The notes under the pieces were generated by a model. That model was not told the DNA's origin. It did no database searches and worked only from the letters and a program-made list of their open reading frames with translations. Source: an uncultured bacterium (GTDB lineage Bacteria; Zixibacteria; MSB-5A5; GN15; FEB-12). Taken from it: a stretch of DNA of 64,000 nt. The translations under genes were made by a program, and so were the position numbers. The DNA lies in NCBI GenBank assembly GCA_965372795.1, contig CBDVDR010000010.1, positions 1 to 64,000 of the forward strand, given 5' to 3'. Of the stretch, positions 432 to 44,286 are shown in pieces (the first letter of the stretch is position 1; every line of letters begins with the position of its first letter).

Positions 432-478
432 TGTAGCATAATCGGCTACGGGAAAATTGTAATATCGACTACAGCGCC
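432..478 (+). promoter_or_regulatory. Bipartite operator-like motif, copy 1 (upstream of isochorismatase)
   Basis: TGTAGCATAATCGGCTACG-N14-TCGACTACAGCGCC; the same architecture and spacing is seen at five other sites in the window. Confidence 0.7.
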
Positions 479-663
479 AGTTCAAGTAAAGCGTGACATT
501 ACATATAAACGAAAGAATAGAAACATTTGTGAAGTTATACTATGAGCAATCTAGATGAAATAGACCGTTGATTTCACTAATTAAAATCTAGAAGCGGTCA
601 CAGATAACTCTGATAATGCTCTATTAACAAATGATCCAACTAACGAATGAAAGGAACGAAATT

Positions 664-1473
664 ATGAAATTACAAACTGTTTCCCTGATGGGCGTACTCG
701 CGGTCGTTATCATGGGCGTGGCGATGAACGAGAATACGACGTTCGCGCAGAGCCAAGACGTGGTCGTTGCCACAGCTCACACTCCGCCCTTAAACGACGG
801 GCTGCCAATCCCTGGCTTCGAGATAACTCGCGGCAACACAGCACTGATGTTCACCGATCCACAGAATGATTTTCTGTCGCCCAAGGGTTCCGCCTGGGGT
901 GTCGTCGGCAAGAGCGTCACTGAGAATGGGACAGTTGCAAACATGTTAGCATTGTTCAAGGTTGCCGACGAAACAGGATTGCCGGTATTCATCTCACCGC
1001 AATACATGTACCCACTTGACCACGAATGGAAGTTCGAGGGTACCCTTGAGCTGATAATGCACTCACTCCCGATGTTCGATCGTGTTGGTGCGCTTGATCT
1101 CACAGGATTCGAAGGCTCAGGGGCTGATTGGCTTGAGGTGTTCAAACCCTATATCAATAATGGCAAGACGATTATAACCAGCCCGCACAAGATCTATGGG
1201 CCAGAGACGAACGACCTTGTTTTGCAGATGCGCAAAGCGGGCATTGACAAAGTGATCTTGGCTGGGATGTCGGCGAACCTATGTGTGGAATCACATATGC
1301 GAGAACTGATTGAGCAAGGCTTTGAGGTAATGGTTGTCACTGATGCAACCGCTGCGGCCATAACCGAGCATTACAACGGCTATGAGGCCGCACTAGTTAA
1401 CTTCCGTATGATCGCAAGTGCTATGGACAATACCAAAAACACCGTCAAGGCGATTAAAGCCGCGTACAGATAG
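664..1473 (+). CDS. Isochorismatase-family cysteine hydrolase with N-terminal signal peptide
   Basis: Motifs TDPQNDF (Asp), SPHK (Lys) and AGMSANLCVESH (Cys). Hydrophobic leader. ATG at 664 follows AAGGAA; the ORF track start is 631. Confidence 0.85.
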   Translation: MKLQTVSLMGVLAVVIMGVAMNENTTFAQSQDVVVATAHTPPLNDGLPIPGFEITRGNTALMFTDPQNDFLSPKGSAWGVVGKSVTENGTVANMLALFKVADETGLPVFISPQYMYPLDHEWKFEGTLELIMHSLPMFDRVGALDLTGFEGSGADWLEVFKPYINNGKTIITSPHKIYGPETNDLVLQMRKAGIDKVILAGMSANLCVESHMRELIEQGFEVMVVTDATAAAITEHYNGYEAALVNFRMIASAMDNTKNTVKAIKAAYR

Positions 1474-1587
1474 TGGGGTATCATGCCAGACTGCATAGGA
1501 TCAAGAAACTAAAACGAGTGCCCAACCTTTGGATCGTTTGGAGTTTGGGCAATGATCGAGCACAATGCTTGGTCGTACACAGGGGTT

Positions 1588-1932: not shown

Positions 1933-1938
1933 GAAATT

Positions 1939-2151: not shown

Positions 2152-2228
<77 letters not shown>

Positions 2229-23401: not shown

Positions 23402-23448
23402 GGTGCTGTAGCCGATACAACAATGTTTCCGTAGCAGATTTTACTACG
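23402..23448 (-). promoter_or_regulatory. Bipartite operator-like motif, copy 2
   Basis: Reverse complement CGTAGTAAAATCTGCTACG-N14-TCGGCTACAGCACC, facing the PAP2 gene. Confidence 0.7.
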
Positions 23449-23645: not shown

Positions 23646-23692
23646 TGTAGCAGAATCTGTGACAGTAGATTCATGGCTTCGGCGACATCGCC
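23646..23692 (+). promoter_or_regulatory. Bipartite operator-like motif, copy 3
   Basis: TGTAGCAGAATCTGTGACA-N14-TCGGCGACATCGCC, facing the 24025 gene. Confidence 0.7.
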
Positions 23693-24720: not shown

Positions 24721-24825
24721 TAAATGATATTCGAAATATGATATTGTATTGCCTGTTTCGGAACATTACAAGTCGATCGCTTTGTAAACCAACTTACAAA
24801 GAAGAATAGTTCAAGGAGTAAAATT

Positions 24826-25983
24826 ATGCTACGATTGATACTTAGCCTTTTGGGCAGTGGTTCAAATAGTTACCTGCTTTTGAAACAATGTCTAATTATT
24901 ATTAGTACTATCGTGACTGGCGTAACATGCTTCGCTGGCTCAAATAGATCGACTGAGGATACAGCAAGTTCAATTGTAAGCGTTGAATTGTTGAAGTCTC
25001 ATAACACCAGTGTCAATATCTACCCATACGCCTTCTACAATCCGGAGATCGAATTGGCCTTTGGAGCCGGAGGGGTTATCACATTCTATACCTCAGAGGA
25101 TAAGAACCTGAGACCGTCAAAATTAGGTTTGTCTGCCTACTATTCTACCAGCAAACAGTATAGAGCAGGTATATCTTCAGATGTTTATCTTCCTGGAAAT
25201 TTCATTTTTGCTTCTGTAAAGTTATTCTTGCAGGACAAGATTGTCTTTACACCGGATACTCTTAACCCGGAAGTTGATGCAAAAATCTGGGGCACAAAGT
25301 TAGAATTACAAGTCCCTGCTTTATTGGGATTTAATACAAAAGACAAAAGGAGAAAGCTGGGGATTATTTTCGACTACCAGCACGTGGAACTAACGTTTGA
25401 GGAGGAGAACTCATCCAATGACGACCCACCCCATACTCTCGGTTTGGGGCTGGGGTGGATATGGGATACGCGGGATAATATTTTTTATCCCATTAATGGA
25501 TACCTCTATCGAATAGAATTTACGGCTTTTGCCAAAGACTTGGGAAGTAGCTACGATTTTAATCGGTATGAAGTGGACTTAAGACGCTATTTCAGCCTGA
25601 ATCCCCAGAAAAAACAACTAATAGCAACTCAATTTTACACAGAAATTGTTCGCGGAACTCCTCCTATCTACAGACTCCCGGCACTTGGCGGGTCCAATTT
25701 AATGAGGGGCCACAAGTCAGGAAGTCTTCGAGATAGAAACTACATTGCTGGTCAAATGGAATACCGTACCCACCTGTGGTGGCATGTCGGTGCAGTCGCC
25801 TTTTTTGGCTTGGGGAATGTGGCACATGAGTTTTCTGATTTCAAAATTAAGGATTTAGAGTACTCTTACGGAGCCGGAATTCGATTTGCCTTTAATAAAA
25901 AAGAAGGAATCAATTTACGAGCCGATTTTGGTTTCGGAGAAAATACTGATGGTATCTACATCTCTGTGGAAGAAGCATTTTAA
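24826..25983 (+). CDS. BamA/TamA (Omp85)-like outer-membrane protein
   Basis: WDTRDNIFYP..G, LGGSNLMRG, SYGAGIRF, NLRADFGFG and terminal EAF. Confidence 0.85.
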   Translation: MLRLILSLLGSGSNSYLLLKQCLIIISTIVTGVTCFAGSNRSTEDTASSIVSVELLKSHNTSVNIYPYAFYNPEIELAFGAGGVITFYTSEDKNLRPSKLGLSAYYSTSKQYRAGISSDVYLPGNFIFASVKLFLQDKIVFTPDTLNPEVDAKIWGTKLELQVPALLGFNTKDKRRKLGIIFDYQHVELTFEEENSSNDDPPHTLGLGLGWIWDTRDNIFYPINGYLYRIEFTAFAKDLGSSYDFNRYEVDLRRYFSLNPQKKQLIATQFYTEIVRGTPPIYRLPALGGSNLMRGHKSGSLRDRNYIAGQMEYRTHLWWHVGAVAFFGLGNVAHEFSDFKIKDLEYSYGAGIRFAFNKKEGINLRADFGFGENTDGIYISVEEAF

Positions 25984-26297: not shown

Positions 26298-26933
26298 CTA
26301 TTTCAATATGGTAATTAAGCCATCTTTACTCAAACGTTTCACAAGCGACTTGCTGAGATCTTCAATGAGCTTCATGAATTTGTCAGGATTCACGGCTTTG
26401 GAAACACCACGCCAAATTATTTTACCATTAGATGTTTTGTAAAGTGTTGATTCGATTAAGTATTCTCTTGTTTCCTTAAAATACCCCGGTTCATGGTACA
26501 TTCCCCAATGAGAATGATAATAACCATAATAATCACGATAATAATATCCTGTAGATGCAGAATACATCCTTCCGGGCACGTAAGTTTCAGTAGTGTCTGC
26601 CCTAAGTAAGCCTGTAATCAATACAGCATCTATATTGAGACCTGTGAAATATTTTTCGAACGCTTCCTTGGAGATTTCTTCATCCTTTGGCATTCCATCA
26701 AGCGATGCTAAGGCATCGACTCCGTTAATAATAAACTCGTTTTTGAGTTGATATTCAAAGACGGTCCTGGTTTGCTCACGAGGAGCCATACCAATTACCA
26801 GTATTTTCTCCAAATTGTCTCCATGATATCCCGGATCAGTCCACACATTTACAAGCGACACACTTCCCCCGCATCCGATAAAAAAGCAGGTAATCGTAAT
26901 GATTGTAGTAAGCTTTATAAATTTAATTATCAT
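26298..26933 (-). CDS. Lipoprotein (DUF4136-like)
   Basis: Lipobox FIGC; Tyr-rich loop; ESTLY....KIIWRGVS. Confidence 0.65.
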   Translation of the reverse strand: MIIKFIKLTTIITITCFFIGCGGSVSLVNVWTDPGYHGDNLEKILVIGMAPREQTRTVFEYQLKNEFIINGVDALASLDGMPKDEEISKEAFEKYFTGLNIDAVLITGLLRADTTETYVPGRMYSASTGYYYRDYYGYYHSHWGMYHEPGYFKETREYLIESTLYKTSNGKIIWRGVSKAVNPDKFMKLIEDLSKSLVKRLSKDGLITILK

Positions 26934-27091
26934 TTGTATCTCCTAACAAATTCGAGAGATGGATTCAATTACTCTTTTGAGTAAGAAGGGGCTTGGCACT
27001 TAACGGGATAAAGCCAATTCATTGCCCAAGACCCAAACTCTCTGTATTTAAAGTTTGTTTAATCACTATAACTCGCAGGATTTTAGCCTGA

Positions 27092-27865
27092 CTAATTCCA
27101 TATAAATTTAAACCCAAATTCGATATTCCATTCATAAGGACGATCATTGCCTATGCCTATACCCGGTTTAATAAAACTGCTAATAGGACCGAACATTAAC
27201 TGGCCATAATTAGCTTTGATGGTTCCATATTCCTCGTCATTTTCATGATCAATCACCGCCGTTGCATTAATATTAACCCATCTTTTCTTGCTTGGAGCAA
27301 CTACTACAAAGAATACATCAATACCGGACCTGCTTATATCAGACCGGTCATCATCTCCACCAATATCAAAAGTATATTGATAAGCAGGAGCAAGAATAGA
27401 ACCTTTTATCCCAAACGGATTGAAGAATACAAGGAAAGCCTGTGGTCCGAGGGTTGTTTTTCCAGAACCAAGAATTGGTTGAGAAGCGGTGCTAAATGTA
27501 GCCTCAAGACCAATAGCAAGAGCTCCCTTCTGGGTAACTTTAGGGACCCATAACAATCGTGTGTCCATATCACCAAAACCACTTGTTGTTGAAGCAGAGG
27601 GACCACTGCCAAAACTCATATCAACTTTATATCCTCTATACCTAAATGATATTGATTGGTTCAAAGGTACGGAATATGTGAAAATTGTTTTTGTGAATGA
27701 ATTTTCACCTTCAAGCGAATTCATTTCCATCGACATGCTAAAATCATAGGTAAAATTCACCGGATTGGTGCCCGTATTGTCATCTTCCTGACCAGCCGCT
27801 GGCTGTATGGTTAGGCAAATAAGAGCCAGACCAATTACAATCTGACTTAGTATTGTTTGTTTCAT
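27092..27865 (-). CDS. Outer-membrane beta-barrel/transporter-like protein
   Basis: Signal peptide; GTNPVN, SGFGD and LGSGKTTLGP motifs; terminal GFKFIWN. Confidence 0.6.
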   Translation of the reverse strand: MKQTILSQIVIGLALICLTIQPAAGQEDDNTGTNPVNFTYDFSMSMEMNSLEGENSFTKTIFTYSVPLNQSISFRYRGYKVDMSFGSGPSASTTSGFGDMDTRLLWVPKVTQKGALAIGLEATFSTASQPILGSGKTTLGPQAFLVFFNPFGIKGSILAPAYQYTFDIGGDDDRSDISRSGIDVFFVVVAPSKKRWVNINATAVIDHENDEEYGTIKANYGQLMFGPISSFIKPGIGIGNDRPYEWNIEFGFKFIWN

Positions 27866-27949
27866 ATTCTTTTCCTTTTATTAACATCCATATTAATTTA
27901 ATTTTTTATTACATATTTTTGTTTAATAGATTATCAAAACAATGTTCTC

Positions 27950-29233
27950 TCATTTAACTGGAACAAATGGTGGAGGAATATATGAGCCGATTTTTTTAGG
28001 ATCTGCCTGATAAACACGAATCACTATTCCCATCTTCTTACCCGGTGTGTAGAGCCAATTACCAGCCTCCGGTTTAGAGGAAAAGTTGAAAATAATTGAG
28101 CCATCATCCTCAAAGACCATTTTGTCAGTGGTCAATACATAGGAATCATATTCATTTTTGTGAACATACATATTTTCATCATGAGCCGTGATTGACCAAA
28201 AGCCTATATCACTTAGTGGTGGGAATTCATCTTTTAAGAAAACAATTTGTCCTTCACCTTCGACAGTGGATAAAAAATAATTGGCTTCTTCTTTTGAGTT
28301 TCCCCATAGTCCGAAGTGTGCACCTGTTGCCCGTCCGATATAATTACCTTTCAAGAACTGGCGTGTTCCAAAAACCTCAGTTGCTCCTATATAACCGTTA
28401 CCTATGAGTAAGCTGTTAGAACCCAACTTGATTTCTTCAAAACCTGCATCAATTCCAGCTTGCACTTCAGTTTTTTCTTTATCCGTAAGACTAACTTTGC
28501 TAAGGATGCCAATTTTCGCAAATCTTTTAAAGAGTTCAATTTCACTTTCAGGTGGTTTTGAGAGAAGTGTATTGAGATATTCCACAAATTTTGGAGATTT
28601 AGCATTCTCTTCATTATATGATGGATAATTCAATTTAGATTTGGGTGGATCAATAAGATGAATTGAATTTTGTATTTCTCTCACTCGGTCTAATTCATCG
28701 GCAGTTGTAATATCAATTCGATTGATAATAATCACATGATTACCTTCGACTTTAACTGGTTTTACATTGGGATCAGTTACTACTTGTCCTTCGGTATAGA
28801 AGGCAAAGCGTCCTCCTTCTCCATTGTTTGCCCGTGTTCCCATATAAAAGAAATTGTGTGTAAATACATCGACGCATTGATAAACGATATAGCGGTCTTT
28901 TACTTCTGGTATTTCAAGTATCACCGGTCCATTCGAGAGATCAATGGCTACCCCACCGGTCATAGACGTAAGATTAGGTGCCACGATCGGCTGTCCAACA
29001 TTGTCCCAGGGCAATTTTGGATTCATTGCTACTGCGTTGAATCTCAATCCCATAAAATTCATCATGCCGTTTACTGTCTTGACCTGTTCCATCATTGGGT
29101 AGGCATAAATGAATGCCTCCCGAGCAATTTCCTTTAGATTTGATTTGTTAGTTTGTGAACACGATAATTGGAACAAAAAGATAAATGCTGTGAAAATCGC
29201 CATTAACAATCTAACAGAGTATAGTTTTTTCAT
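27950..29233 (-). CDS. DUF1254/DUF1214 lipoprotein
   Basis: AREAFIYAYP, VAPN, DLSNGPV and FWSIT motifs; lipobox LSC. Start moved to MKKLYSV (AGGAAGG RBS) because the ORF-track extension runs through the 60-bp duplication. Confidence 0.8.
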   Translation of the reverse strand: MKKLYSVRLLMAIFTAFIFLFQLSCSQTNKSNLKEIAREAFIYAYPMMEQVKTVNGMMNFMGLRFNAVAMNPKLPWDNVGQPIVAPNLTSMTGGVAIDLSNGPVILEIPEVKDRYIVYQCVDVFTHNFFYMGTRANNGEGGRFAFYTEGQVVTDPNVKPVKVEGNHVIIINRIDITTADELDRVREIQNSIHLIDPPKSKLNYPSYNEENAKSPKFVEYLNTLLSKPPESEIELFKRFAKIGILSKVSLTDKEKTEVQAGIDAGFEEIKLGSNSLLIGNGYIGATEVFGTRQFLKGNYIGRATGAHFGLWGNSKEEANYFLSTVEGEGQIVFLKDEFPPLSDIGFWSITAHDENMYVHKNEYDSYVLTTDKMVFEDDGSIIFNFSSKPEAGNWLYTPGKKMGIVIRVYQADPKKIGSYIPPPFVPVK

Positions 29234-29347
29234 ACTTTCCTTCCTAACAACAATTGGTTTAGTAGTTGCATTATTGATTGATCGTATATTCATCTTCTGT
29301 TCCTTTTTAAATAATTTTGACAACACTATAACGGTGTCAATTCGATT

Positions 29348-30975
29348 TACATCTTTTGCATTTGTGGTTCTTTCCATTGCCCACTCATAGCTTCCTCTTT
29401 TGGCCAGCACAGACGCAAGACAAAATAAATGAGTAAGCAACAATTTTAATTTTCTCTTTCTATATCCGGTAGCACGAAGCTTTTATCAAAATATGCTTCT
29501 TCCGGACCATAAAACCGGAACAACAAGAAGAAATCGTCGCCTGCTGTCGGTATCCAATTCGATTTTAGCCCTTGAGGATACTTTTCGCCAAAGTAAATAT
29601 CGATTGATCCATCGTCATTCACTTTTAATAATGATTTATCATAAGACGACAGCCCTACTATGTCAGCATCGTTGTAGATGAACGACTTGGTCTTTTTTCC
29701 ATAGGCAATAACAGACCAGAAATTTGTAGCCGGAACGTTGTCAGGTACATTGAGTTTGTAATTCTGTTTACCGGATAACAGCTCGCCATTGGCATCGTTT
29801 ATGCCTAACAAATACGCTGACGCTTTACCGAGATGCCTGGGAATAAATGTTATCCAATGAAACAGGCTACCTCTTTGGTCTAAAAGCAGGAATTCACCTT
29901 CATCATAAACAAAACCCTCTTCTGATGGTTGTTTGATACTCAACCACTGGCGATTAGGCCAATAGATTTCGTGAGAGTAACCAGGTGTTTCAAATGTGTA
30001 TTCCAAGTAGTCAAAGCCATCTTTTGCCGCTTTCTCCAAAGCACGTTTCACCTTACCTTGAGGTGCAAAAGGTTTTCCCTTTTCAATGCCAATTGAAGCA
30101 AGCATTCCACCCATCACTTTGTCACGTTCAAGTAGTGGCTCATCATTTAGGAGTTCAGCGATGTCTTCAAAGAAACTTAAATCATATACTGGTAATGTTG
30201 GTAAATGTCTCTCCGCCATGTCAATGTATTGCCCCGCGGGCGGATTACCAGCCTGACTTAACGGATAGCCATTAATATTTTTCGCATATTCAGCCGCTTC
30301 ACCATAGCTGGCATCTTCCAAAGGGATAAGACGCAATGCAACAAAGACATCATACAAATCCGAAGATACAGTGAAGTATCCCTCGGGGACTTCCCCATCA
30401 TAACCTGGTGGTAAAAACAGATATTTACCCCCTCTTCCTTGATCTATACCAGCCGGGCCAATATCAGCAATCGGGACCTGCCAGATATCGGTGGCACTTC
30501 CAAAAATGGCAGTTCGCTTTGAAGCAGGCGGAATTTCAAGCACTACTGGTCCATTCTTTGTACTTAGATGAATCGTCGCATACGGTGTCTGATTGTTGGG
30601 GGTGATTGCTTCTGCTAAAGCTGTTGGTACTTTGGTTATGTAATAGACTACGTTGTAACCACCACCAAGAGTGAAATTACCTTTACGCAGATTGATCATA
30701 CTGACCGCGGGCAAAGCCCAGTTCATCGCTTCAATGCCACGCTGATATGCTTTTTGATACTCCCAGTCTATCTGTTCATCCGCTTTTAGCTTTGTACCAC
30801 CTACTAACAATATTATGATCAGTAGGCTTGTGACACAAAATGTTAAATATACTTTTTTCATTTTTCACCTTTCGTAGGTATTTCAGGAAGACAACAAAAC
30901 GTCATCTACTCGTTCTACATCTTTTGCATTTGTGGTTCTTTCCATTGCCCACTCATAGCTTCCTCTTTTGGCCAG
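29348..30975. repeat. 60-bp exact direct repeat (29348-29407 and 30916-30975)
   Basis: tacatcttttgcatttgtggttctttccattgcccactcatagcttcctcttttggccag occurs twice and is the 3' end of CDS 30915..32321. Confidence 0.92.
29446..30861 (-). CDS. DUF1254/DUF1214 secreted protein
   Basis: TPNNQTPY, GPAG.D.G.GGKYL, FWSV..Y, NWIPT and FRFYGP motifs. Confidence 0.85.
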   Translation of the reverse strand: MKKVYLTFCVTSLLIIILLVGGTKLKADEQIDWEYQKAYQRGIEAMNWALPAVSMINLRKGNFTLGGGYNVVYYITKVPTALAEAITPNNQTPYATIHLSTKNGPVVLEIPPASKRTAIFGSATDIWQVPIADIGPAGIDQGRGGKYLFLPPGYDGEVPEGYFTVSSDLYDVFVALRLIPLEDASYGEAAEYAKNINGYPLSQAGNPPAGQYIDMAERHLPTLPVYDLSFFEDIAELLNDEPLLERDKVMGGMLASIGIEKGKPFAPQGKVKRALEKAAKDGFDYLEYTFETPGYSHEIYWPNRQWLSIKQPSEEGFVYDEGEFLLLDQRGSLFHWITFIPRHLGKASAYLLGINDANGELLSGKQNYKLNVPDNVPATNFWSVIAYGKKTKSFIYNDADIVGLSSYDKSLLKVNDDGSIDIYFGEKYPQGLKSNWIPTAGDDFFLLFRFYGPEEAYFDKSFVLPDIEREN

Positions 30976-32321
30976 TAGAGTCTTAATACAACTGAAAAAG
31001 GACCCTCAGGTGAAGGTAACCAGTTGGATTCTTTATCTTTTCCAGGAGACTCATTCTGGAAATAAAATGTTATTCCACCATCGTCATCTTTTTTGAATTG
31101 CGGCAACATTGGCGAGTTGAGCAGGTAACGGTTGAGCGGATTTTCTATAAGCAAACTCGCTGGTAATTCATACATTGTAAGTGACCAAAATGCATGAACA
31201 GGCGGTAGCTGTCCCGGTGCAAAGCGCATAGTGTATTTATTTGCTCCGTCAAGTTCTTGTCTGTCTGAATCTACATAATATGATGGATATATTGCTTCCT
31301 GAATCGAATTTCCCCAAATGCCGAGAACAGCCGCACCCATTCGATATAGGTAATTGTTTTTCAGAGATTCTCTTGTTCCGAAGACATCTCCTGATGAAAT
31401 TTCACCTGTATTAGCCTGTTCCAATAATTTGCTAAAATCAGCCCATGCATCAGCAATTCCATCTCCAATTGCTTTCTTCAATTCGGGCGAGAACTTATCC
31501 ATGTCGAATGTCTTACCCGCACCGATTTCAATTTTAGCAAATTTCACCATGAGCTCTTTTTCTGAGGGATGGGTTGGGCAGAATTGCAACAGGAAGTTTA
31601 TGACTTTGAAGGCATCGGTAGATGTTCGCAAATTTTCCTTAGTGGGAGGAGTAACGAACTTTATTGCAGGCTGAGCTTTTGGTGCAGGCTGGCCGAGAAA
31701 CTCAGAGAGCGGCTGTACCAGGTAGCCGTTCATAATCTTTTTGACATTGCCTATATCATTTGGATTAAACAATTGTGTGCGATAAATAGCAAGTACTAGA
31801 TCAGTTTCTGAATTGATTACTTTTTTTATACCGTTGGGAGTTTCCCCATTCCAACTTGGTCCGGCAATAAGGTAGCTAGCTCCATCATTGCCTGTGACAC
31901 GGCTTCCAATATAGTCGAAATTATGAGTGTACAGATCGATAAGCTGGATACTAATATATCTACTTTTCTCTACAGTAGGCACAGTCAGCACGATTGGTTC
32001 TCTGCGTAGATCCAGACCTACAAAGGAGTAGGGTGTATCCGAGTTAGGAGTTTGCACGGCTTTGTCTTTGGGGGTGTAAACCCGCGGGACGTTGTGAATC
32101 TTATTCCATTCCCCTTTGTATTCGGGACTCTCGCTATTTACAAAATAATCGTGCATGATGCGGTAGCCATCCACCATCGGATAGCCGTAGAGATAAGCTT
32201 CCTTGGCGATGGATCGTACTTCATCTGGTGTGATAGAATTCTGTCCACACGAGAACTGGGACGAAATCACCAGCACCACAATCAACATCATGAATATTTT
32301 GAATGAACGTATTTTCTTCAT
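30915..32321 (-). CDS. DUF1254/DUF1214 lipoprotein
   Basis: AKEAYLYGYP, TPNSDTPYS, FWSLTMY, NWLP.P and RLYWP motifs; lipobox FSC. Confidence 0.88.
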   Translation of the reverse strand: MKKIRSFKIFMMLIVVLVISSQFSCGQNSITPDEVRSIAKEAYLYGYPMVDGYRIMHDYFVNSESPEYKGEWNKIHNVPRVYTPKDKAVQTPNSDTPYSFVGLDLRREPIVLTVPTVEKSRYISIQLIDLYTHNFDYIGSRVTGNDGASYLIAGPSWNGETPNGIKKVINSETDLVLAIYRTQLFNPNDIGNVKKIMNGYLVQPLSEFLGQPAPKAQPAIKFVTPPTKENLRTSTDAFKVINFLLQFCPTHPSEKELMVKFAKIEIGAGKTFDMDKFSPELKKAIGDGIADAWADFSKLLEQANTGEISSGDVFGTRESLKNNYLYRMGAAVLGIWGNSIQEAIYPSYYVDSDRQELDGANKYTMRFAPGQLPPVHAFWSLTMYELPASLLIENPLNRYLLNSPMLPQFKKDDDGGITFYFQNESPGKDKESNWLPSPEGPFSVVLRLYWPKEEAMSGQWKEPQMQKM

Positions 32322-32410
32322 CTTTTCTCACTCCTAAAGAGATTCTTTTTTGCTTCATCTACTTACACAATGTATATCAGATTGGTGAATTACAGTCTCT
32401 ATCCTGGTCA

Positions 32411-33232
32411 TTAGAACAGAACCAGAACTGAAATTCCCACGCCAAATTCATCGACATCGTAAAGGTACCAGTCAGTATCACCTTTTTCTTCATTTTCATA
32501 TTCAATTATAGAGTATTTGAAGTTGGGACTAATTGTCCAGCTTTTTGATGGGTTCCAGGACAAACCAGTCTTAAAAGTGTAGGTACCTTCTGAGCCGCCA
32601 AAACCAGCATCAGCTTGAAGGCTCCAAGTAACACCCGGAGAAATGACTAATCCCATTGAAGAGCCAATAAGAACATCAAACCATTTATTATCAACATCTT
32701 CCTTTACCTCAATGGTGCTGGTCCCTTCGGTTATAGTTAAGTTTGTACCAAAATCATGTTTCATAAAGCGACCACCAACATAAGGGGTAACGACGAAGTT
32801 TCTATCTTCGGAGCGGAAGGCTGTGTATCCTACAGTAGCTTCAGCAACAAAAGTTTTAAAAAATATTTCAGCTGTATATTCTCCATCTCCATCTCCATCT
32901 TCATCAGTTAAATCACCTTCGACATCGTCACCTAGTTTAAGACCACCAAACGATCCTGCTATCATCCAACTGCCATCGGTTGCATAACCGCCCAATCCAA
33001 AAGCAGATTGAGTAAAGTCATTAAAATCTTCTGGACCCATATCGACTTCAAATTCAATAGTACCGGTTGAACTGAAATATAGACCTTGATCTCCTTCGGC
33101 ATTCATGAATGTAAATCCAGTACCGACACCATAAAACCACTTCTTCTGTGCATTTACGCTCGACACCCCAATGAGGCTTACTATGAAGACAGTCAACAAA
33201 GCAGCTTTAGTTCCTTTTAATAGTTTGTTCAT
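32411..33232 (-). CDS. Outer-membrane beta-barrel protein
   Basis: Signal peptide VNA-Q; amphipathic strands; terminal VLF. Confidence 0.7.
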   Translation of the reverse strand: MNKLLKGTKAALLTVFIVSLIGVSSVNAQKKWFYGVGTGFTFMNAEGDQGLYFSSTGTIEFEVDMGPEDFNDFTQSAFGLGGYATDGSWMIAGSFGGLKLGDDVEGDLTDEDGDGDGEYTAEIFFKTFVAEATVGYTAFRSEDRNFVVTPYVGGRFMKHDFGTNLTITEGTSTIEVKEDVDNKWFDVLIGSSMGLVISPGVTWSLQADAGFGGSEGTYTFKTGLSWNPSKSWTISPNFKYSIIEYENEEKGDTDWYLYDVDEFGVGISVLVLF

Positions 33233-33253
33233 GGTTGTTATTCTCCTTTTTAA

Positions 33254-33616
33254 TTACTTATTTATTTGTTCTTCTATTATTTCTACTACTTTTTCAAATT
33301 CCGTAGACTTGTCAAAGAAGTGGTCAGCGCCGTCCTTAGCAGCCTCCTTTCTAAACTTATCAGCGGAGTACTTGCTCAACATTATGGTAATCGGTGGCAC
33401 CTCAAATTTTTTCACCACTTGCAGAACATCAAACCCAGACCCTCCCGGCATCATGATATCAATGATGATCACGTCGGGTAGAATCTCCTTCGCCATACGA
33501 ATGCTTTCCGGCACATTAACAGCTTCGGATATTTGGAGATCGCCACGGATTCGATCTAATAATTTGATCAAGCTTCTTCGGACCAAAATTGAGTCATCGA
33601 CTATCAGTATTTTCAT
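33254..33616 (-). CDS. Single-domain response regulator (receiver only)
   Basis: ILIVDD...PDVIIIDIMMPGGSG...GAD.FFDK. Confidence 0.88.
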   Translation of the reverse strand: MKILIVDDSILVRRSLIKLLDRIRGDLQISEAVNVPESIRMAKEILPDVIIIDIMMPGGSGFDVLQVVKKFEVPPITIMLSKYSADKFRKEAAKDGADHFFDKSTEFEKVVEIIEEQINK

Positions 33617-33685
33617 TTTTTCCTCTGTGTAAAAAAAATGGTCATCCAATAAATATATTCACTTATATTCTGTCGTTTTGGCATG

Positions 33686-34411
33686 TCATTGATTCACTTG
33701 AAGGGGTTGAGTCATTCTAAATGATAGAAGCGATCTGACTGGAATAGAAATTTGATTTCCCGGGGTCAATACAGCGGCGGCAACTCCAATCTTAGCTCCA
33801 GTACGGGCACCTTTATTTTTGTCCATAGCGGCTCCAACGGCGGCTCCAGCAGCAATTTTTTTAAGCGCTCCAGATCGTTCGCCATCATAATTGATTTGAT
33901 CGGTCACGATTGGATACATTTGACCATCAATATTGATGTCTGTTACTTCAAGGACAAGTTTTGCCTTGGAAAGTCTCTTCCCTTCTTTAGCCTCTACAAC
34001 ACGACCATACACCTTGCTTCCCTTAGGGGCAATTACCTGCCCATCGACAACAAGATTAGCCTCAAGTGCCGTAGTAAATCGGTCTCCTTTCTTTATTCTC
34101 CCGGTAACAAGATTCGATTCATTACGTACCATCAACTGTGTTCCGGCGTTGATTGTTAGAGGACCTGTAGTGGCGGAGGCTGGCTTCGGACTGACCGATG
34201 GCACCGACCTCTGGAAAGTCAGTGAAATAATCGACTCCAATGGGTAAGTGTTTATAACTCCGTCAACTTCAAACTCAATGACGCTGACCGATCCGCTCAT
34301 ATACTTACCTGTTAACTCTCTGCCGTCTTTGAGTAGCAGGGTGTCCGCGCTTACAACCATCGCCATCAGAACTATTGTCCCGCCGATTATCCATAAAATT
34401 GATTTTGACAT
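33686..34411 (-). CDS. Secreted hypothetical protein with glycine-zipper
   Basis: Signal peptide VSA-DT; AAGAAVGAA..GA..GA motif; AGGAG RBS before ATG 34411. Confidence 0.65.
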   Translation of the reverse strand: MSKSILWIIGGTIVLMAMVVSADTLLLKDGRELTGKYMSGSVSVIEFEVDGVINTYPLESIISLTFQRSVPSVSPKPASATTGPLTINAGTQLMVRNESNLVTGRIKKGDRFTTALEANLVVDGQVIAPKGSKVYGRVVEAKEGKRLSKAKLVLEVTDINIDGQMYPIVTDQINYDGERSGALKKIAAGAAVGAAMDKNKGARTGAKIGVAAAVLTPGNQISIPVRSLLSFRMTQPLQVNQ

Positions 34412-34493
34412 TTTATAAGTACTCCTAAGCATTAAGCGTTTGATTAGTATTTTCTTCAATCATATAACAAGAATTTATAGATCGCATTGAAAT

Positions 34494-34540
34494 GGCGATG
34501 TAGTTCAAGCCATGAATCCGCCGTCACAGATTCTGCTACA
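34494..34540 (-). promoter_or_regulatory. Bipartite operator-like motif, copy 4
   Basis: Reverse complement TGTAGCAGAATCTGTGACG-N14-TGAACTACATCGCC, heading the eight-gene minus-strand run 34411->26298. Confidence 0.72.
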
Positions 34541-34720: not shown

Positions 34721-35353
34721 TCAGTTTACAAGTTTACCCTTAATGCAATATCGAATGAGTTCTTGATTGGATGACATGTTCATTTTCTGAAGGATTCTTT
34801 GTCGGTAGGTACTAATCGTACTCGGGCTTACTGAAAGAGTCTTCGTCATGTTCTGAGGAGACTCCCCAGATCCGATTAAAAGTAACACCTGGAACTCACG
34901 ATCCGACAGTTTCTCGTGCAGAATTTCGAATTGAGGCGACTCCAGTTCAAGTGCGAGACAATCAGCCACCATTTCACTAATATATCGACCACCCCTCCAA
35001 ATTCTATCAATTGCTTTGATTAATTCGGTTGATGCGGTTGATTTTGTCAAGTATCCCGCAGCCCCTGATTTTAGGGCACGCAAGGCGTACATTCGCTCAG
35101 GATGCATACTCAGGATAAGAACTTTCAAGTTCTTGTGTACTGCCCGAAGCTCTTTCAAAAGATCAAGTCCATTTTTATCGGGGAGATTGATATCTAAAAC
35201 CAGAACATCACAATCCACTTTCTTAACGGCGTCAAAGACTTCGAATGCTGAAGAGCACTCGGCAGTTACCTGCATGTCCATCCGTCCTTCGATAAGTTTT
35301 TTTAGACCTTCTCTTATTAAAGCATGATCGTCGGTTATTATTATATTGATCAC
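34721..35353 (-). CDS. NarL/LuxR-family response regulator
   Basis: DDH..IREG receiver, VLDINLP, C-terminal LSDREFQVL...HTH TISTYRQRI..KM. Confidence 0.92.
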   Translation of the reverse strand: MINIIITDDHALIREGLKKLIEGRMDMQVTAECSSAFEVFDAVKKVDCDVLVLDINLPDKNGLDLLKELRAVHKNLKVLILSMHPERMYALRALKSGAAGYLTKSTASTELIKAIDRIWRGGRYISEMVADCLALELESPQFEILHEKLSDREFQVLLLIGSGESPQNMTKTLSVSPSTISTYRQRILQKMNMSSNQELIRYCIKGKLVN

Positions 35354-35363
35354 TATTCTATCC

Positions 35364-37478
35364 TCAAGATTTTATAGGTATTGTAATACGTATGGTTAAT
35401 CCTTCGCCAGAAGTTGAATCTATTTGTACGTTGCCATCGAGGGCGCTAGCCCTTTCTCTTATACCCAGCAAGCCGAATCTGTTTGTAGAGGTAAGCGCAT
35501 CCTTAGCTAAGCCAACTCCGTTGTCACTCACCTCAATAATCACAGTATTGTCATTCAGAATCAATTTTACTGTGGAGTTGCTTGCTTTAGAGTGACGGGA
35601 TATATTGGTTAAACACTCCTGAACAATCCGGTAGACAGCAATGGCAATCTCGTCGTTGATGGTTATGTGGTCTAACGCGCAAACGAAATCACACTTAATC
35701 CTGTGGGACTTGAAGAACTCTTCTGCTTGGTACTCAAGAGCAGCAATCAAACCAAGATTATCCAAAATTTCAGGTCTCAGTCTTCTCACAAACGCATGCA
35801 GCCTTTCGCTGGCTTTTTCCAAAGTCTCGCTCATTGCGGCCAGGTCTTCTGAAATAGAATCGGAATTGTCTGTGTCTTCTGAGTTGTGTACTTGACGCTC
35901 TACAATCGCAACGTCAATTTTCAATGAAGTAAGAACTTGTCCCAAATCGTCGTGCAAATCTCTGGCAATTGATTTTCGTTCTCGTTCGGTTATCTTTGTC
36001 ATGTGGTTCGTCAAATCACGCAACCGCTGTCTTGAGGCACTCAATTCATCAATGTACTTCTGATGCTCCCGAAGATCAGAAATTCCCACAAGGTATCGGT
36101 TTCCGAACAGCGTCTCCTGCAAATTCAAGCTGACATCAATAGGAATCTCCGAACCGTCTTTCTTCCGTCCTTTGATTTGCAGCCCGGAACCCATAGGTCT
36201 GGGCAAGGTTTGTTTTCTAATATTATCACGGAGCTTTCTATGCTTTTTATGCAAACTTGCAGGCACCAGCACTTCGATAGCACTTCCGATTAATTCTGAA
36301 TCGGTATACCCAAAGAGTCTGGAGCAGGTATTGTTTTGCATTTTGATTGTGCCATCTTCTAATGTAATGAGCATTGCACCAGGCGCCGCTTCTATAAGAT
36401 GCTCAAAAGTATTTGAGACGTGCAAGCGGTCAATGGCCAAAGCCGCCTGTAGTGTGATTGCTGAGATCAGTTCAATGTTTTCATCGCTCATCTCTTTTTT
36501 ATTAGGTGAATAAAAACAAAATACAGCCATTAAAGCACTATTCGTTTTTAATGGCACGCCCAGAGCTGTTTTGATTCCTAACCGGTGAAACACCTTGTCA
36601 CGAGGAATAACCAAGTTACTCTGCCAGTTTTCATTGGAATGCCACTCCAAATCTCCGGTGCTCCAAACGCTGCCCGCCACATCTTGTCCTTTTTCAAGAG
36701 TAAGGCCGACACTACAATCAGCAAATTGCTTCAAATCTTTAGTTACTGAACTCCATTGGTAATAAGCTTTGAGATTATTAGTGTCTTCCTGAGGTATCCA
36801 TATTTCAGCATACCGGTACTCAAAAAACTCAGAAAGTTCAATTAAGCATATTCTTAGAGCTTGCTCAATATCCTCAGCAGCAACAATATAATTTAACAAC
36901 TGGTGCTCAATTTGAGATGACAGATTGCGTGCTTGAATTTCAGAAGTGCGCTCTGCTACCAATGCTTCCAGGTGATTGTGATACTGTGAAAGTTCCTCTT
37001 TACTCTGATGGCGCTCAGTAATGTCCTCGATAAAGCAACTTACACCAATAACCGTTCCATCTTGCAGTTTATTTGGATAATAATTGTGTTCGAATAGCCT
37101 TTTTTCGCCTGGATGAGCGAGGGTTGCGGCATATACATGCCCTTTGATAATTGGATTACCTGTGTCGATGACCTGTTGAAACTGCGGCTCAATAGAGTCT
37201 GCCAAGTCCGGAAATAACTTGCGTATGGATTGTCCGATATGCTTTTCCGCAGGTAACCCATTGATGTCAGCAAGCCAATCATTAATATATGTATAGCGCA
37301 ATTTTGTATCCAAGTAGCAAAAACCCACTTTCGCAGTGCTCATTATATAAATGAGATTCGCTTCCCTTGCCTGCATATTTGTAATCTGTGCCTTGAGTGT
37401 TCTTAAAACTTCATCGCTAACATTGATATTCGTTTTCAAAATTTCCTCGTTACAAAATCTCTTGAATGTTCGTCTCAT
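35364..37478 (-). CDS. PAS-GAF-PAS sensor histidine kinase (HisKA_3, NarX/UhpB type)
   Basis: ERKSIARDLHDDLGQ H-box, LRP..LD.LGL, E.LTN..RH, DNGVG, FGLLGIRERA; no obvious TM helix. Confidence 0.92.
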   Translation of the reverse strand: MRRTFKRFCNEEILKTNINVSDEVLRTLKAQITNMQAREANLIYIMSTAKVGFCYLDTKLRYTYINDWLADINGLPAEKHIGQSIRKLFPDLADSIEPQFQQVIDTGNPIIKGHVYAATLAHPGEKRLFEHNYYPNKLQDGTVIGVSCFIEDITERHQSKEELSQYHNHLEALVAERTSEIQARNLSSQIEHQLLNYIVAAEDIEQALRICLIELSEFFEYRYAEIWIPQEDTNNLKAYYQWSSVTKDLKQFADCSVGLTLEKGQDVAGSVWSTGDLEWHSNENWQSNLVIPRDKVFHRLGIKTALGVPLKTNSALMAVFCFYSPNKKEMSDENIELISAITLQAALAIDRLHVSNTFEHLIEAAPGAMLITLEDGTIKMQNNTCSRLFGYTDSELIGSAIEVLVPASLHKKHRKLRDNIRKQTLPRPMGSGLQIKGRKKDGSEIPIDVSLNLQETLFGNRYLVGISDLREHQKYIDELSASRQRLRDLTNHMTKITERERKSIARDLHDDLGQVLTSLKIDVAIVERQVHNSEDTDNSDSISEDLAAMSETLEKASERLHAFVRRLRPEILDNLGLIAALEYQAEEFFKSHRIKCDFVCALDHITINDEIAIAVYRIVQECLTNISRHSKASNSTVKLILNDNTVIIEVSDNGVGLAKDALTSTNRFGLLGIRERASALDGNVQIDSTSGEGLTIRITIPIKS

Positions 37479-37733: not shown

Positions 37734-37780
37734 TGTCGCAATTTTTATGACATCACTTACATAATTTCTACGACATCCAG
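37734..37780 (+). promoter_or_regulatory. Bipartite operator-like motif, copy 5 (most divergent)
   Basis: TGTCGCAATTTTTATGACA-N14-TCTACGACATCCAG, facing the symporter gene. Confidence 0.55.
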
Positions 37781-40007: not shown

Positions 40008-40880
40008 TTACTGCCATCCGGCGAATCGTCCCGTTATCCAAACCGGATGATGGTCGCTCGCCTTGGTACCGGTCAGAACCCCGCTGCCCGTAATCATGAA
40101 CCCTCTTGTGTAAATATGATCAAGGTGCAATCTTATAATTCCTAACGGTCCGACATCGGAAGTCGATTCCACACCTTCAGAAGCGCGTATCAAGCCAATT
40201 CTCTCAAAAGAGCTATCGAACCTTTCCAGTACCTGGTGTAGCACAGTATTGAAATCTCCTCCCACGACAACATGTTCAAAGTTGGTGTCGATTGCTGATG
40301 CCAGCGAATCAATCTGATCGAGGCGAGACCGAAACCCCATGCGATACATTTCAGTGTGTGCCGAGATAACCCGAATTTCTCGTTCACCGATTACAACGGT
40401 GGCGGCAGTGCCTATGCGATTTTGTCGCCTAAGAAAATCGAGATGGGGAAGCACAATTTTAGTCGGCTCATTAAGCGGCCACGGTGAGAGTATAGCATTG
40501 CCAAAAGCAGACTTCCGTTTGGAATGTACCGCCGATGGGTAGTAAACATAATTAAGCCTGCGACTCCGGGCAATCTTCTCGACTCCCGGCAAATCCGCTT
40601 CCTGAAGTAGTACTATATCAGCCAAAAGCCAGATTGAATCCTCTCCCAACTCATGAATGACCAGGTCTAATTTCTCGCCAAGATGAATATTGTAAGAGAT
40701 TACTACAATTTCCTGCCCGTGATATGTGGGTGACTCTGTTGAAACATGCCAGTATAACGGACCATAAGGGTCTTCGTAATTCGTATAAGTTCCGCAGGCA
40801 CATAGACTACCGATAGTAGCAGTCGCCATGACAACTAATAGCGTATATCTGATATATCTCATTTGATTGAACTTGTGCAT
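40008..40880 (-). CDS. Endonuclease/exonuclease/phosphatase (EEP) family lipoprotein
   Basis: SYNI, LLQE, GNAILS, GGDFN, LDHIY and SDH.PV motifs; lipobox LCAC. Confidence 0.9.
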   Translation of the reverse strand: MHKFNQMRYIRYTLLVVMATATIGSLCACGTYTNYEDPYGPLYWHVSTESPTYHGQEIVVISYNIHLGEKLDLVIHELGEDSIWLLADIVLLQEADLPGVEKIARSRRLNYVYYPSAVHSKRKSAFGNAILSPWPLNEPTKIVLPHLDFLRRQNRIGTAATVVIGEREIRVISAHTEMYRMGFRSRLDQIDSLASAIDTNFEHVVVGGDFNTVLHQVLERFDSSFERIGLIRASEGVESTSDVGPLGIIRLHLDHIYTRGFMITGSGVLTGTKASDHHPVWITGRFAGWQ

Positions 40881-40986
40881 AATATTAGATCTCTCGTTGC
40901 ATCGTGCGGACTCTGTATTTCATTTATTAATTCAACCTGCATCAATATCATTCGCCACCATAAATGTGGATATAAGGCACCAGTCA

Positions 40987-43900
40987 TCATAGCAGAAGCT
41001 TAATAAAATCCGCAAATTTTCTCTTTATTGCTCCCGGTGGAGTGATATATTGATCCAGTTCCTCCGTAGTTTCTATCCAGGTGCAAAGCCTGGGCAAAAT
41101 TATGAAATCAAAAAAACCGATTGTACTTAGCCAACCGCCCAATAGAATCATTACTTCACCATCTAGCAACATACTCCGGTAGTCTAAGTTAATACTGCCA
41201 ACGGTAAGGAAAAAAATGAGACGCTCACGATCCTGAGGCGAAGTATCTTCAAGTATGTCCTCCACTAATTGACGCCACGCTTCCAGTAGATCTTCGGGTA
41301 CATCCTGAACATCTGGCGTACGATCACCGGAGACCCCACCTGTGCTTTGCTTAGCGAGGTAAGCAATATATCTCTTGAATAGATCTGCCAGACCAGGGTG
41401 GCTGCAAATTTTTTCCCAGGCAATCGATGACGCCATAAAGTTCGCTTTAAGATGCAATTTCGGTTTGATATCACTGCTGTCATTGCCCAAGTACGAAACT
41501 GAATAGCCAATGGAATCAAGCAACGCAGAGATATTGGAGGCAACAGCAAGTACTTCCGGACTAAGTGGCCAGAGACGGTTCATCCATGGAGCCTTTGGAT
41601 CCGCAACATGTTTAACCCGGCCGGCTATATCTGCTACCCCCTGCTGAGGGTTATACAAACCAACCTTAAGTAATCCATCTATAGATTCTAACTCGGAGTG
41701 CATGATATTGGAAAATTCAACGAGCCTGCTCATCAATCCATGAGCACGAGCCATTGTGAGAGTACTGGAGCTAGGCGACGATTTGTTAGTCGGGTTGATT
41801 ATCAGCACCCGGCAACCACGTAGAGAACTACCTGCTAATAATGATGCATAAATATAGCTTTGCCAAAGAGAACTCGGTACAGTCAAGACTGATCCTTCGG
41901 GCATCAAACTGTACAATATCGCCTTGCCTATAGTCGCCTTCTTGTGTTGAAATCCTGTGCCGTTGTGCAGTTGTACTACCTCGCCCCAGTTAGGAATCCA
42001 CGATGGTGTTGTCTTATCATGCTCAGCTTTTATCTTGCTTTGGTAGTCTGCTGAATATGGTAACGGACGTAATGGAAACGGAATTTCATCCTCGGTCATA
42101 CCATTTGTAAGCAGTACTTTGCGACCGGCCTCCTTGATCGCCAGAGCAGCTGGTCCCTGAATTATAATCGCTCGATCCTCCCAGTTTGTTCCAACATAAT
42201 GCTCACCTATACCCATCCCTGTAAAAAGAGCCATCCCACGGTATGGATCTTCTTCTGTTAAATCATAAAAAGCAAGTTTTCTATGATCTCGCATATAATT
42301 GTCGGTAACGGGAAACACTCCCACTACATGGAAGCTATAAAAAGACGGGTCTGCTGGATAGGTTATGTTGACATTGACCCTTATCCGATCATTCAACCAC
42401 TTCTCACCATACTGTGATTTTTCAATTGCCAGAAGTGTTGAACTGTCAACAGCCATGCGAAGTCTGTCCTGTGCTTTTTTAAGTTGTATTGACCATTCTT
42501 CATATTCGGAGGGCAAATTAATCGTTTTTGTAAGAGGTTCTTGAAGAATACGAAGCCATCGCCTGGCTTTGTTAATTTCAAAATAATGCTGGTCAAGAAA
42601 TATGAAGTACGCCGGTAATTTGCCAGTCTGGTCATAAGCCTCGACTCGCTCTGCCAGAACCTCTAAATAATTTAAAGTGTGGCGAAAAGCGATTTTATCC
42701 GGTTTACCATTATCATTAACTCCGGCAATATCGTGTACCCACAAGACGTGATAATCCTCTGCAAGACGTACAGAACGAGCCAACTCCCACTGAAATTGCT
42801 CGTTGATAACATACCAAACCCTGTTATCAGCCGAAAAGGATTGTTTTGTTGCTCGTTGGATTATCTCGTTGATCTCCGATTGCTTATCATGTTGCTCAGG
42901 TTTCAATGCGAACTGCAATGGAAGCCATACGAATCTTGAATCTCTCCAACGCTTTCTAAGTTCACTACGATTTTCTTCCATTATATCACAAAGACTCTGA
43001 AAAACCCAATACACCCGACGAGCTTGTAAGATACTAATATCAGTCTGTGAGAGTAACCAACGAGCAAATTCGGTTCGAGCCACGGCGATCAGCCCGCTTA
43101 ATTTGTCATTCTTTTTACGTTGACCAAGCAGGTTGTTGTACGGTAAGATAACTTCATCCAGCAGGAGCGCACGAGCTTTTGCACTCAGGCGTCGTCCGAA
43201 ATCATCCCCTTCTTTGCCGAAATAGAGATGGGAAGAACCTGCTAAACTGAAAGCATGATCCAAGCTCTCGTGATAAACACGAATTTCTTCGTTCAAGCTG
43301 AGCCCCTTAGGGAATCTTATATCCGTACTGCCAATATGCTTTTTTAGATCTGAGAGATCTGATTCCATAACGACTGCTGTCTTACCGCCTTGATCTACAA
43401 ATGGCTGACTCATTCGGGTAATCCACATCGCTCTCTCTTGCACATCGGAAATTGCTTCAGATAATTTTAGTTCAGGATTTGCCAACACCAGACGTACAGA
43501 ATTTGGGAGCACTTTGAGTTGAACATTGTCATTTTGCGGGCGCGTCTTTCCCAATTTGGATCCCCACATAGGAACCGTTACACCAACTCCAATTGACTGA
43601 CCTCGAGACGGTATCCAATTTATTGAAACAGTTGAACCACGACCAAAAATGCCTGATCGCCTGATGGGAATGTCCAGCCTTAGCATGAAATTAAAATCAT
43701 CATCGGGAATATTGTAATCAATGCCAACACCAAAATCAAAAGTTGGTATCGATATTTCAGCTCGGACACCACCGTCCAACGCTTTGGATCGTATTCCAAA
43801 GTAACCCCTAAGTCCAATCGCGGTTAAACCCTGGATGGGACTACTGATGTTCCTGAAGACACCACCTATAGCAAGTATCGTTGGATCACTCGAGTCGGTC

Positions 43901-44109
43901 GAACGATACCATTGTAATTCTCCCCCAAGAAATCCTTTGTAAACTGGCGGCAGTCCCAGAGTTGAAAAGGTACCACCCTTATTTGGTGGAACGATCTGGG
44001 CAAGACCTACTTCACCCACTAAAACGATCATTATCAGAAGGCACCAGATTGCCCAAGACCAGATACCGAAAATTCGTTGTAATTTCCTTGTCACTCTAAA
44101 TAGCTCCAT
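40987..44109 (-). CDS. Large secreted phospholipase-D-superfamily protein with N-terminal beta-rich domain
   Basis: Signal peptide; HRKLAFYD (HxKxxxxD); second HLK; GSINLDYRS..LDGE. Confidence 0.65.
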   Translation of the reverse strand: MELFRVTRKLQRIFGIWSWAIWCLLIMIVLVGEVGLAQIVPPNKGGTFSTLGLPPVYKGFLGGELQWYRSTDSSDPTILAIGGVFRNISSPIQGLTAIGLRGYFGIRSKALDGGVRAEISIPTFDFGVGIDYNIPDDDFNFMLRLDIPIRRSGIFGRGSTVSINWIPSRGQSIGVGVTVPMWGSKLGKTRPQNDNVQLKVLPNSVRLVLANPELKLSEAISDVQERAMWITRMSQPFVDQGGKTAVVMESDLSDLKKHIGSTDIRFPKGLSLNEEIRVYHESLDHAFSLAGSSHLYFGKEGDDFGRRLSAKARALLLDEVILPYNNLLGQRKKNDKLSGLIAVARTEFARWLLSQTDISILQARRVYWVFQSLCDIMEENRSELRKRWRDSRFVWLPLQFALKPEQHDKQSEINEIIQRATKQSFSADNRVWYVINEQFQWELARSVRLAEDYHVLWVHDIAGVNDNGKPDKIAFRHTLNYLEVLAERVEAYDQTGKLPAYFIFLDQHYFEINKARRWLRILQEPLTKTINLPSEYEEWSIQLKKAQDRLRMAVDSSTLLAIEKSQYGEKWLNDRIRVNVNITYPADPSFYSFHVVGVFPVTDNYMRDHRKLAFYDLTEEDPYRGMALFTGMGIGEHYVGTNWEDRAIIIQGPAALAIKEAGRKVLLTNGMTEDEIPFPLRPLPYSADYQSKIKAEHDKTTPSWIPNWGEVVQLHNGTGFQHKKATIGKAILYSLMPEGSVLTVPSSLWQSYIYASLLAGSSLRGCRVLIINPTNKSSPSSSTLTMARAHGLMSRLVEFSNIMHSELESIDGLLKVGLYNPQQGVADIAGRVKHVADPKAPWMNRLWPLSPEVLAVASNISALLDSIGYSVSYLGNDSSDIKPKLHLKANFMASSIAWEKICSHPGLADLFKRYIAYLAKQSTGGVSGDRTPDVQDVPEDLLEAWRQLVEDILEDTSPQDRERLIFFLTVGSINLDYRSMLLDGEVMILLGGWLSTIGFFDFIILPRLCTWIETTEELDQYITPPGAIKRKFADFIKLLL

Positions 44110-44239
44110 TATGTGGTTTAGACATGTACGGAATCTGTCGGTTCGTCTGGTTTGCTCTTAACTAAACTGCTTTAGTGCTACTTGTTTTCGTTTGAAACAT
44201 CATTCCGATTATTTGGAAAGATGTTCTTTCTTCGACCGT

Positions 44240-44286
44240 GGGGCTATAGTCGATAATACAATGTTCTTGTAGCAAATTATGCTACG
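44240..44286 (-). promoter_or_regulatory. Bipartite operator-like motif, copy 6
   Basis: Reverse complement CGTAGCATAATTTGCTACA-N14-TCGACTATAGCCCC, facing the PLD-EEP genes. Confidence 0.7.

Follow-up and report, generated by a model that had tools for sequence, protein, structure and literature searches.

We analysed a stretch of 64,000 nucleotides (referred to as the window) that forms the start of contig C10 (CBDVDR010000010.1, assembly GCA_965372795.1) in the genome of an uncultured bacterium of the Zixibacteria (3.35 Mb, 38% GC). An earlier note on this DNA had described six intergenic modules of 47 bp with identical geometry, consisting of a 19-bp imperfect palindrome, 14 nt of spacer and a 14-bp second box, and had proposed them as operators of a NarL-type regulator encoded amongst them. 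All six are present in the window letter for letter. They are given here together with the regulator and its neighbouring kinase; in the text, sites on the minus strand are named by their high coordinate.

432..478, plus strand: module 1, lineage A; palindrome at 432-450, third half-site at 468-473, then the -35 region and a -10-like hexamer at 495-500
23402..23448, minus strand: module 2, lineage A; its -10-like hexamer is the weakest among the six
23646..23692, plus strand: module 3, lineage B; its promoter can be aligned with site 6069 of metagenome locus L017, and the -10-like hexamer is at 23710-23715
34494..34540, minus strand: module 4, lineage B; located, as is typical of the family, some 180 bp downstream of the regulator gene; its -10-like hexamer spans 34477-34472
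37734..37780, plus strand: module 5, lineage C, the weakest module; -10-like hexamer at 37798-37803
44240..44286, minus strand: module 6, lineage A; -10-like hexamer at 44223-44218
34721..35353, minus strand: NarL-family, UvrY/GacA-like response regulator with receiver and LuxR-type helix-turn-helix (HTH) domains and serine at helix position 178; predicted binder of the modules
35364..37478, minus strand: sensor kinase with the Pfam domain order PAS-GAF-PAS-HisKA_3-HATPase

The two proteins have the make-up of a NarL/FixJ-type two-component system. The regulator combines a receiver domain (PF00072, E-value 3.7e-27) with a LuxR-type HTH (PF00196, E-value 2.7e-13) and matches the structures of NarL, VraR/LiaR and DosR over its full length, and the HisKA_3 kinase (PF07730 and HATPase_c) is encoded 10 bp from it. 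The UvrY-like group to which the regulator belongs is very common, 3251 of 3865 scored candidates reaching an E-value of 1e-40 or below. The regulator's best match among 40 related genomes is 36% identical, and metagenome proteins reach 70-84% identity (P0002-P0017).

The modules are built from half-sites. The palindrome reads YGTMGY-N7-RYKACR, and a third half-site in forward orientation occupies module positions 37-42, 23 bp from the right arm. The second box of the earlier note is real, but it is not a separate operator, as it consists of this third half-site plus the -35 region. When 28 offsets were scored for a -10 element, the score peaked 21-22 nt after the third half-site, both for the six window sites and with three sites of locus L017 (see below) added; it exceeds 2 bits in five of these nine sites. 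The -35 hexamers depart strongly from consensus. A consensus promoter scan lists none of the five module promoters that it covered (site 432 lies outside the scan), which is what weak -35 elements would give. This fits activator dependence, and we infer from the layout that the modules are activator-dependent promoters.

The genome-wide motif scan that the earlier note had called for leaves the six sites standing alone. With a weight matrix derived from the six and applied to both strands (6.69 million positions), the modules score 31.8-49.6 bits versus 18.5 bits for the next best position; no further copies were found, and none lies beyond contig C10. When each module was left out in turn, five of them kept 37.1-44.4 bits with no rivals outside the set, and 37734 dropped to 12.9 bits with two chance rivals. 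A looser family pattern yields nine matches in the genome, six of which are these modules. Across the 284 other genomes of the phylum, neither the pattern fitted to the six modules nor a DNA search with module 1 and its flanks returned a match.

Homology among sites 432, 23448 and 44286 extends over 130-243 bp (68-77% identity), that between sites 23646 and 34540 over 49 bp (86% identity). Spacers of one lineage agree at 10-12 of 14 positions, those of different lineages at 2-6. When lineages A and B are compared, 13-15 of 19 positions are conserved in the palindrome and 9-11 of 14 in the second box; in comparisons of 37734 with the other lineages the values are 9-13 and 7-9, respectively. By these alignments the six modules are three promoter lineages rather than independent sites, partly spread by duplication; because the boxes are kept between lineages while the spacers diverge, the boxes are under selection. 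All modules point towards a gene, as had been noted, but this orientation is weak evidence: it is informative for three sites only, because the other three sit between divergent genes. The lineage-A promoters also share a 14-nt block about 27-40 bp upstream of 432, 23448 and 44286 and a second block in their 5' leaders, where two of the three carry 9-codon frames; these blocks are possibly a co-regulator site or mere shared ancestry.

The link between module and regulator was followed in the best 80 of 586 confirmed metagenome stretches for the regulator, the scope of all counts over 80 loci below. The closest of them, L017, encodes a regulator of 71% identity together with a homologous kinase, and it carries three modules within 6.4 kb (26.4-37.9 bits). 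In other words, the motif does occur near an orthologous regulator, as the earlier note had asked to be checked, in the one close locus examined. What follows the L017 modules is unrelated to the window targets: genes for a ZnuA-like binding protein and for a protein with the metallo-beta-lactamase fold, and an unassigned frame truncated at the end of the contig. The promoter at site 6069 aligns with module 3 beyond the boxes. Over the 80 loci, the layout of inverted half-site, 7 nt, half-site, 17 nt and half-site has 15 matches, all on the strand of the regulator, versus at most two at each of 104 other spacings; the 15 include two from L017 and two identical pairs. Of the 79 loci with at least 60 nt of DNA downstream of the regulator, 30 have an N7 palindrome in the first 320 nt of it, corresponding to 22 clusters at 90% identity, where 200 dinucleotide shuffles gave a mean of 0.98 and a maximum of 4; the N6 form of the palindrome occurs in eight loci. 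Leaving L017 aside, 16 downstream frames were scanned, and eight of them are stand-alone receivers.

In relatives, Lys or Arg at position 178 of the regulator is accompanied by TGTAGG half-sites (Lys-type sites), whereas the window regulator has Ser178 with TGTAGC half-sites and no TGTAGG-type site. As read from the alignment of 18 distinct Lys-type relatives, a fourth half-site often follows 23 bp further on, and then a near-consensus -10 element at about 21 nt, which puts the last half-site over the -35 position. The offset of 21-22 nt is matched in these relatives and in both modules of genome G221. The latter are two full four-half-site Lys-type promoters (L115:9478 and 10746, minus strand) lying 1.3 kb apart, one of them before a receiver gene, and they show the fourth half-site and the -10 element, neither of which was part of the search pattern.

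Residue 178 and the half-site bases vary together. Of the rows compared (loci with a detected site plus the window regulator, loci without a site being left out), all 26 with Lys or Arg at 178 carry G at base 6 and C at base 14, compared with 1 of 14 with another residue (nominal Fisher p 1e-9). The first count had been 22 of 22 versus 1 of 8, and the eight N6 sites, added later, gave 4 of 4 versus 0 of 4. In a tree built without the helix columns residue 178 changes about four times, and supported branches provide two independent pairs that follow the link and none that oppose it. Position 178 aligns with the first lysine of the LiaR recognition helix, which we take to be Lys174; RcsB K180 presumably maps onto the window regulator as well. 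Published structural work describes DNA contacts by LiaR Lys174, Lys177 and Thr178 (PMC4482077) and contact of RcsB K180 with a G (PMC5829831). Judged from these comparisons, residue 178 is a plausible specificity residue, statistically unproven.

The genes that the modules would control in the window are the following.

631..1473, plus strand: cysteine hydrolase of the isochorismatase family, predicted target of module 1; its N-terminus reads by eye like a signal, and the likely start is near 664
21975..22853, minus strand: PAP2-family protein; lies 549 bp from module 2, whose predicted target it is
24025..25983, plus strand: outer-membrane beta-barrel gene and Omp85-superfamily gene, predicted targets
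26298..34459, minus strand: eight co-directional genes, predicted operon of module 4
33254..33649, minus strand: stand-alone receiver gene, second in the module 4 run, 36% identical to the receiver after the site of locus L033
38111..39889, plus strand: broken dicarboxylate/amino-acid symporter and solute-binding-domain gene, on the module 5 side
40008..44109, minus strand: 1040-aa protein without a Pfam family and EEP-family hydrolase, predicted targets of module 6

The eight-gene run encodes a secreted protein (likely start 34411), the stand-alone receiver, two proteins without a Pfam family, three DUF1254/DUF1214 proteins and a lipoprotein-like protein. The first open reading frame of the symporter covers profile positions 1-187 of 387 and ends at a stop at 38671, the middle of the symporter being missing. 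Among the predicted targets are hydrolases (PAP2, EEP, PLD-like and cysteine hydrolase), barrels and a transporter, and most of the targets have N-termini that read by eye like signal peptides or lipoboxes. A common programme of envelope remodelling, as the earlier note had it, finds no support: the L017 modules stand before ZnuA-like and metallo-beta-lactamase-fold genes, and the symporter is broken. The target set would fit cell-surface scavenging as well as remodelling. The 1040-aa protein (40987-44109, minus strand) has a possible N-terminal barrel-like region and, by eye, two PLD-like His-x-Lys motifs; the ESM Atlas returns only 'hypothetical protein' clusters for it, in which Gemmatimonadota are commonest among the few taxon-labelled members.

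We consider it probable that the modules are activator-dependent promoters of the sigma-70 type under the control of the adjacent two-component system. Starting from the established motif, geometry, co-occurrence with the regulator family and -10 spacing, the kinase would phosphorylate the UvrY-like regulator, as gene adjacency and domain types suggest, and a regulator dimer would occupy the palindrome YGTMGY-N7-RYKACR. A further subunit or dimer would bind the third half-site, 23 bp downstream and overlapping a poor -35 element, and RNA polymerase would be recruited to the -10 element 21-22 nt beyond, judging from the geometry and from analogy with NarL-family activators. The ancestral target would have been a stand-alone receiver gene downstream of the regulator, in the window probably the receiver gene at 33254..33649; later, copies of the whole promoter would have come to stand in front of further genes gained by horizontal transfer, most of which encode secreted or membrane proteins. 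Binding of the modules by the adjacent regulator is likely on this evidence: what the earlier note had proposed for the product of 34721-35353 gains from the co-occurrence in L017, from the geometry found across the family and from the link between residue 178 and the bases, with binding itself a prediction. The mechanism amounts to textbook two-component activation and is therefore useful rather than surprising to the specialist. As far as can be read from DNA, the regulon signature of a UvrY-like two-component system is real and mechanistically ordinary, and the geometry across the family is what is added here.

Several observations weigh against this assignment. Co-occurrence with a close orthologue comes from one locus, L017, and in 50 of the 80 loci the zone downstream contains no N7 site. 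The detection patterns, for the spacing layout as well as for the downstream N7 palindrome, were written after a first look at the same loci, so that the spacing and shuffle controls carry the weight and offset this only in part. The -10 matrix is approximate, and sites 432 and 23448 have poor -10 hexamers. A sign test on the link between residue and base is not significant after phylogenetic correction. Across the phylum the Lys-type pattern is at background, with 6 matches versus 9 control matches in 285 genomes, and no UvrY-like regulator was found in G221, a genome that is 74% complete. An exact scan across GTDB gave one match (L097, Gloeocapsopsis), directly upstream of an ABC1-kinase gene at a locus without the regulator, which we rejected as chance because 0.7-2.2 matches are expected by chance; viral contigs yielded two weak loci, which were uninformative.

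Amongst other explanations, the same regulator might act as a repressor, or several copies might be remnants of promoter duplication that have stopped driving the genes now next to them. A third half-site over the -35 region could block the polymerase, the promoter homology reaches well past the boxes, three targets follow untranslated regions of 330-550 bp (site 23448 being 549 bp from its gene), and the target at 37734 is broken. We nevertheless regard this as unlikely, since the -35 hexamers far from consensus and the silent consensus scan fit activator dependence, the boxes but not the spacers are kept between lineages, and UvrY and GacA, as analogous regulators, activate from their boxes. 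Binding by another factor, either a regulator left behind in the donor or the one other LuxR-type HTH protein found in the genome (contig C3), whose recognition helix is different, appears less probable still. Such a factor would be compatible with the predicted status of binding by the 34721-35353 product and with the family-type modules of G221 that lack a detected cognate regulator, but in 30 of 79 loci the motif immediately follows a regulator gene of this family, and it varies with residue 178, while C3-type regulators are common in relatives, in which the motif is missing.

That the modules are a mobile repeat, an attC-like site or a structured RNA leader copied around the island we hold to be very improbable. 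The extended homology among three copies would agree with it, as would two of the six 150-nt stretches that fold better than their shuffles (z -2.5 and -2.9). The other four stretches have z values of +0.8 to -2.0 and there is no common structure, Rfam returns no match besides tRNA, no inverted repeats of at least 14 nt flank modules 2, 3 and 6, and copies outside contig C10 are absent; moreover, the conservation sits in helically spaced half-sites and not in paired stems.

Comparison with known systems places activation by the UvrY-like regulator in a familiar setting. The UvrY box is an 18-nt inverted repeat, TGTAAG-N6-CTTACA, with partial half-sites nearby (PMC4682653), the GacA box is the same (PMC4950607), and both regulators activate from their boxes (PMC4682653, PMC4950607). 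The modules resemble the UvrY/SirA/GacA system in the NarL-family regulator, the polarity of the palindrome, a nearly identical half-site and extra half-sites near the palindrome, which are described at csrB and csrC for UvrY (PMC4682653). They differ in a spacer of 7 instead of 6 nt in all six, in TGTAGC instead of TGTAAG, such that none matches the 18-bp box, and in a third half-site fixed 23 bp on and overlapping the -35 element in place of a far-upstream extra site. Furthermore, the window targets are protein genes, and only tRNA reaches the Rfam gathering score, with no Csr/Rsm RNA amongst the matches. Against the UvrY model NF007018 the regulator scores 155.3 bits, level with its top NCBIfam match and below the cut-off of 280. 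BarA and GacS have a hybrid-sensor architecture with receiver and Hpt domains, whereas Pfam detects neither domain in the window kinase. The regulator is not a UvrY orthologue, four tests of UvrY/GacA membership having come out negative, though the module would work like a UvrY/GacA box.

DosR-type promoters have primary plus secondary sites. LiaR binds a consensus site together with an adjacent secondary site close to the polymerase (PMC4482077). The window system shares with LiaR/VraR the NarL-family HTH, the HisKA_3 kinase, primary and secondary sites and the DNA-contacting helix positions; it differs from these and from DosR-type systems in the recognition sequence, in a secondary site that keeps a clear half-site and in having no LiaF or membrane sensor here. 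The closest named relatives of the regulator, at 39-41% identity, are those of PAS-kinase/NarL pairs of Burkholderiales (lxa-like), which combine Lys178 with TGTAGG-N6-CCTACA just downstream of the regulator, before a receiver gene, in two of five fetched loci; they differ in the N6 spacer and in their targets. The nearest of them (L099, L100 and L101) lie in universal-stress-protein clusters on Burkholderiales plasmids, with fnr annotated in L100; in L100 and L101 the regulator is closely followed by the N6 palindrome. For Burkholderia, the lxa motif has been published as the Fnr-like TGA-N6-TCA, which differs from the box described here (PMC3721108). The N7 motif did not turn up in the literature text that was accessible; supplements and databases such as RegPrecise, which lay outside the search, may hold it. 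Two candidate papers (PMC4264754 and PMC5715377) proved irrelevant, the matches in PMC5715377 being primers.

The second PAS domain of the kinase matches FixL (E-value 1.6e-11) and DosP heme-PAS domains, and a histidine in it aligns with the FixL histidine that we take to be the heme ligand; the sensed signal is possibly O2 or redox state, through a heme-like PAS domain. This PAS domain is absent from the L017 kinase, whose middle differs, and the signal may therefore differ between hosts. Autoregulation of the kinase operon was also considered and is unsupported, as module 5 faces away from it. A wider reading, which we advance tentatively and think doubtful as a whole, is that a large, uncharacterised UvrY-like subfamily reads arrays in which half-sites recur at steps of 23 bp until the -35 element is reached, and that a single residue sets the code (Lys178 for TGTAGG, Ser, Thr, Asn or Gln for other bases), that its Ser178 branch uses a portable promoter cassette before acquired secreted-protein genes, with a different regulon in each host, and that the heme-like PAS domain confers O2 or redox control here. 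If true, the array, cassette and heme-PAS reading would be the first regulatory handle on DUF1254/DUF1214 proteins. The predicted operator, promoter geometry and specificity residue concern a very common, unstudied regulator group, and orphan families (DUF1254/DUF1214 and the 1040-aa PLD-like protein) would be tied to one switch in an uncultured lineage.

The earlier note had treated the six sites as one island, a view that the gene order does not bear out. Module 1 lies beyond the 3' end of a tRNA gene:

2152..2228, minus strand: tRNA-Met

Site 432 is about 21 kb from the other modules, and the core gene mfd, present in 12 of 12 relatives, is located between site 432 and the cluster; the sites therefore form two patches, module 1 lying in an accessory patch of its own. 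The cluster at 21.9-44.4 kb has 41.5% GC and the first 2.15 kb 45.7%, compared with 37.0% for the DNA between them. A DUF1254 gene occurs in 1 of the 40 relatives and the 1040-aa protein in none, which is consistent with acquired DNA. Degenerate tRNA pieces adjoin module 1, to the left of tRNA-Met. Several similar copies (70-100% identity) of window positions 1-90 and 1931-2051, that is, of the contig start and the degenerate tRNA-Met pieces, are found on contig C26, which suggests repeated insertions at tRNA-Met, and contig C26 may continue the module 1 patch. The stretch at about 1650-1900, single copy in the genome, resembles a decayed start of an IS3-type transposase, judged by eye.

Between the divergent modules 2 and 3, at about 23520-23610, lie Lys-type-like half-sites, possibly remnants of another site. 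A near-consensus sigma-70 promoter (11 of 12 positions; 24024-23997, minus strand) faces modules 3 and 2 and the PAP2 gene, and antisense or regulator-independent transcription could start there. Beyond module 6, a 449-aa secreted protein without a Pfam family (44730-46079, minus strand) ends in a dockerin-like repeat, a motif with ten matches in the genome, a number that would point to Zixibacteria, and a low-GC block (46755-60444, minus strand) contains a gene for a 1812-aa Roco/NB-ARC/TPR protein and a type I restriction-modification system.

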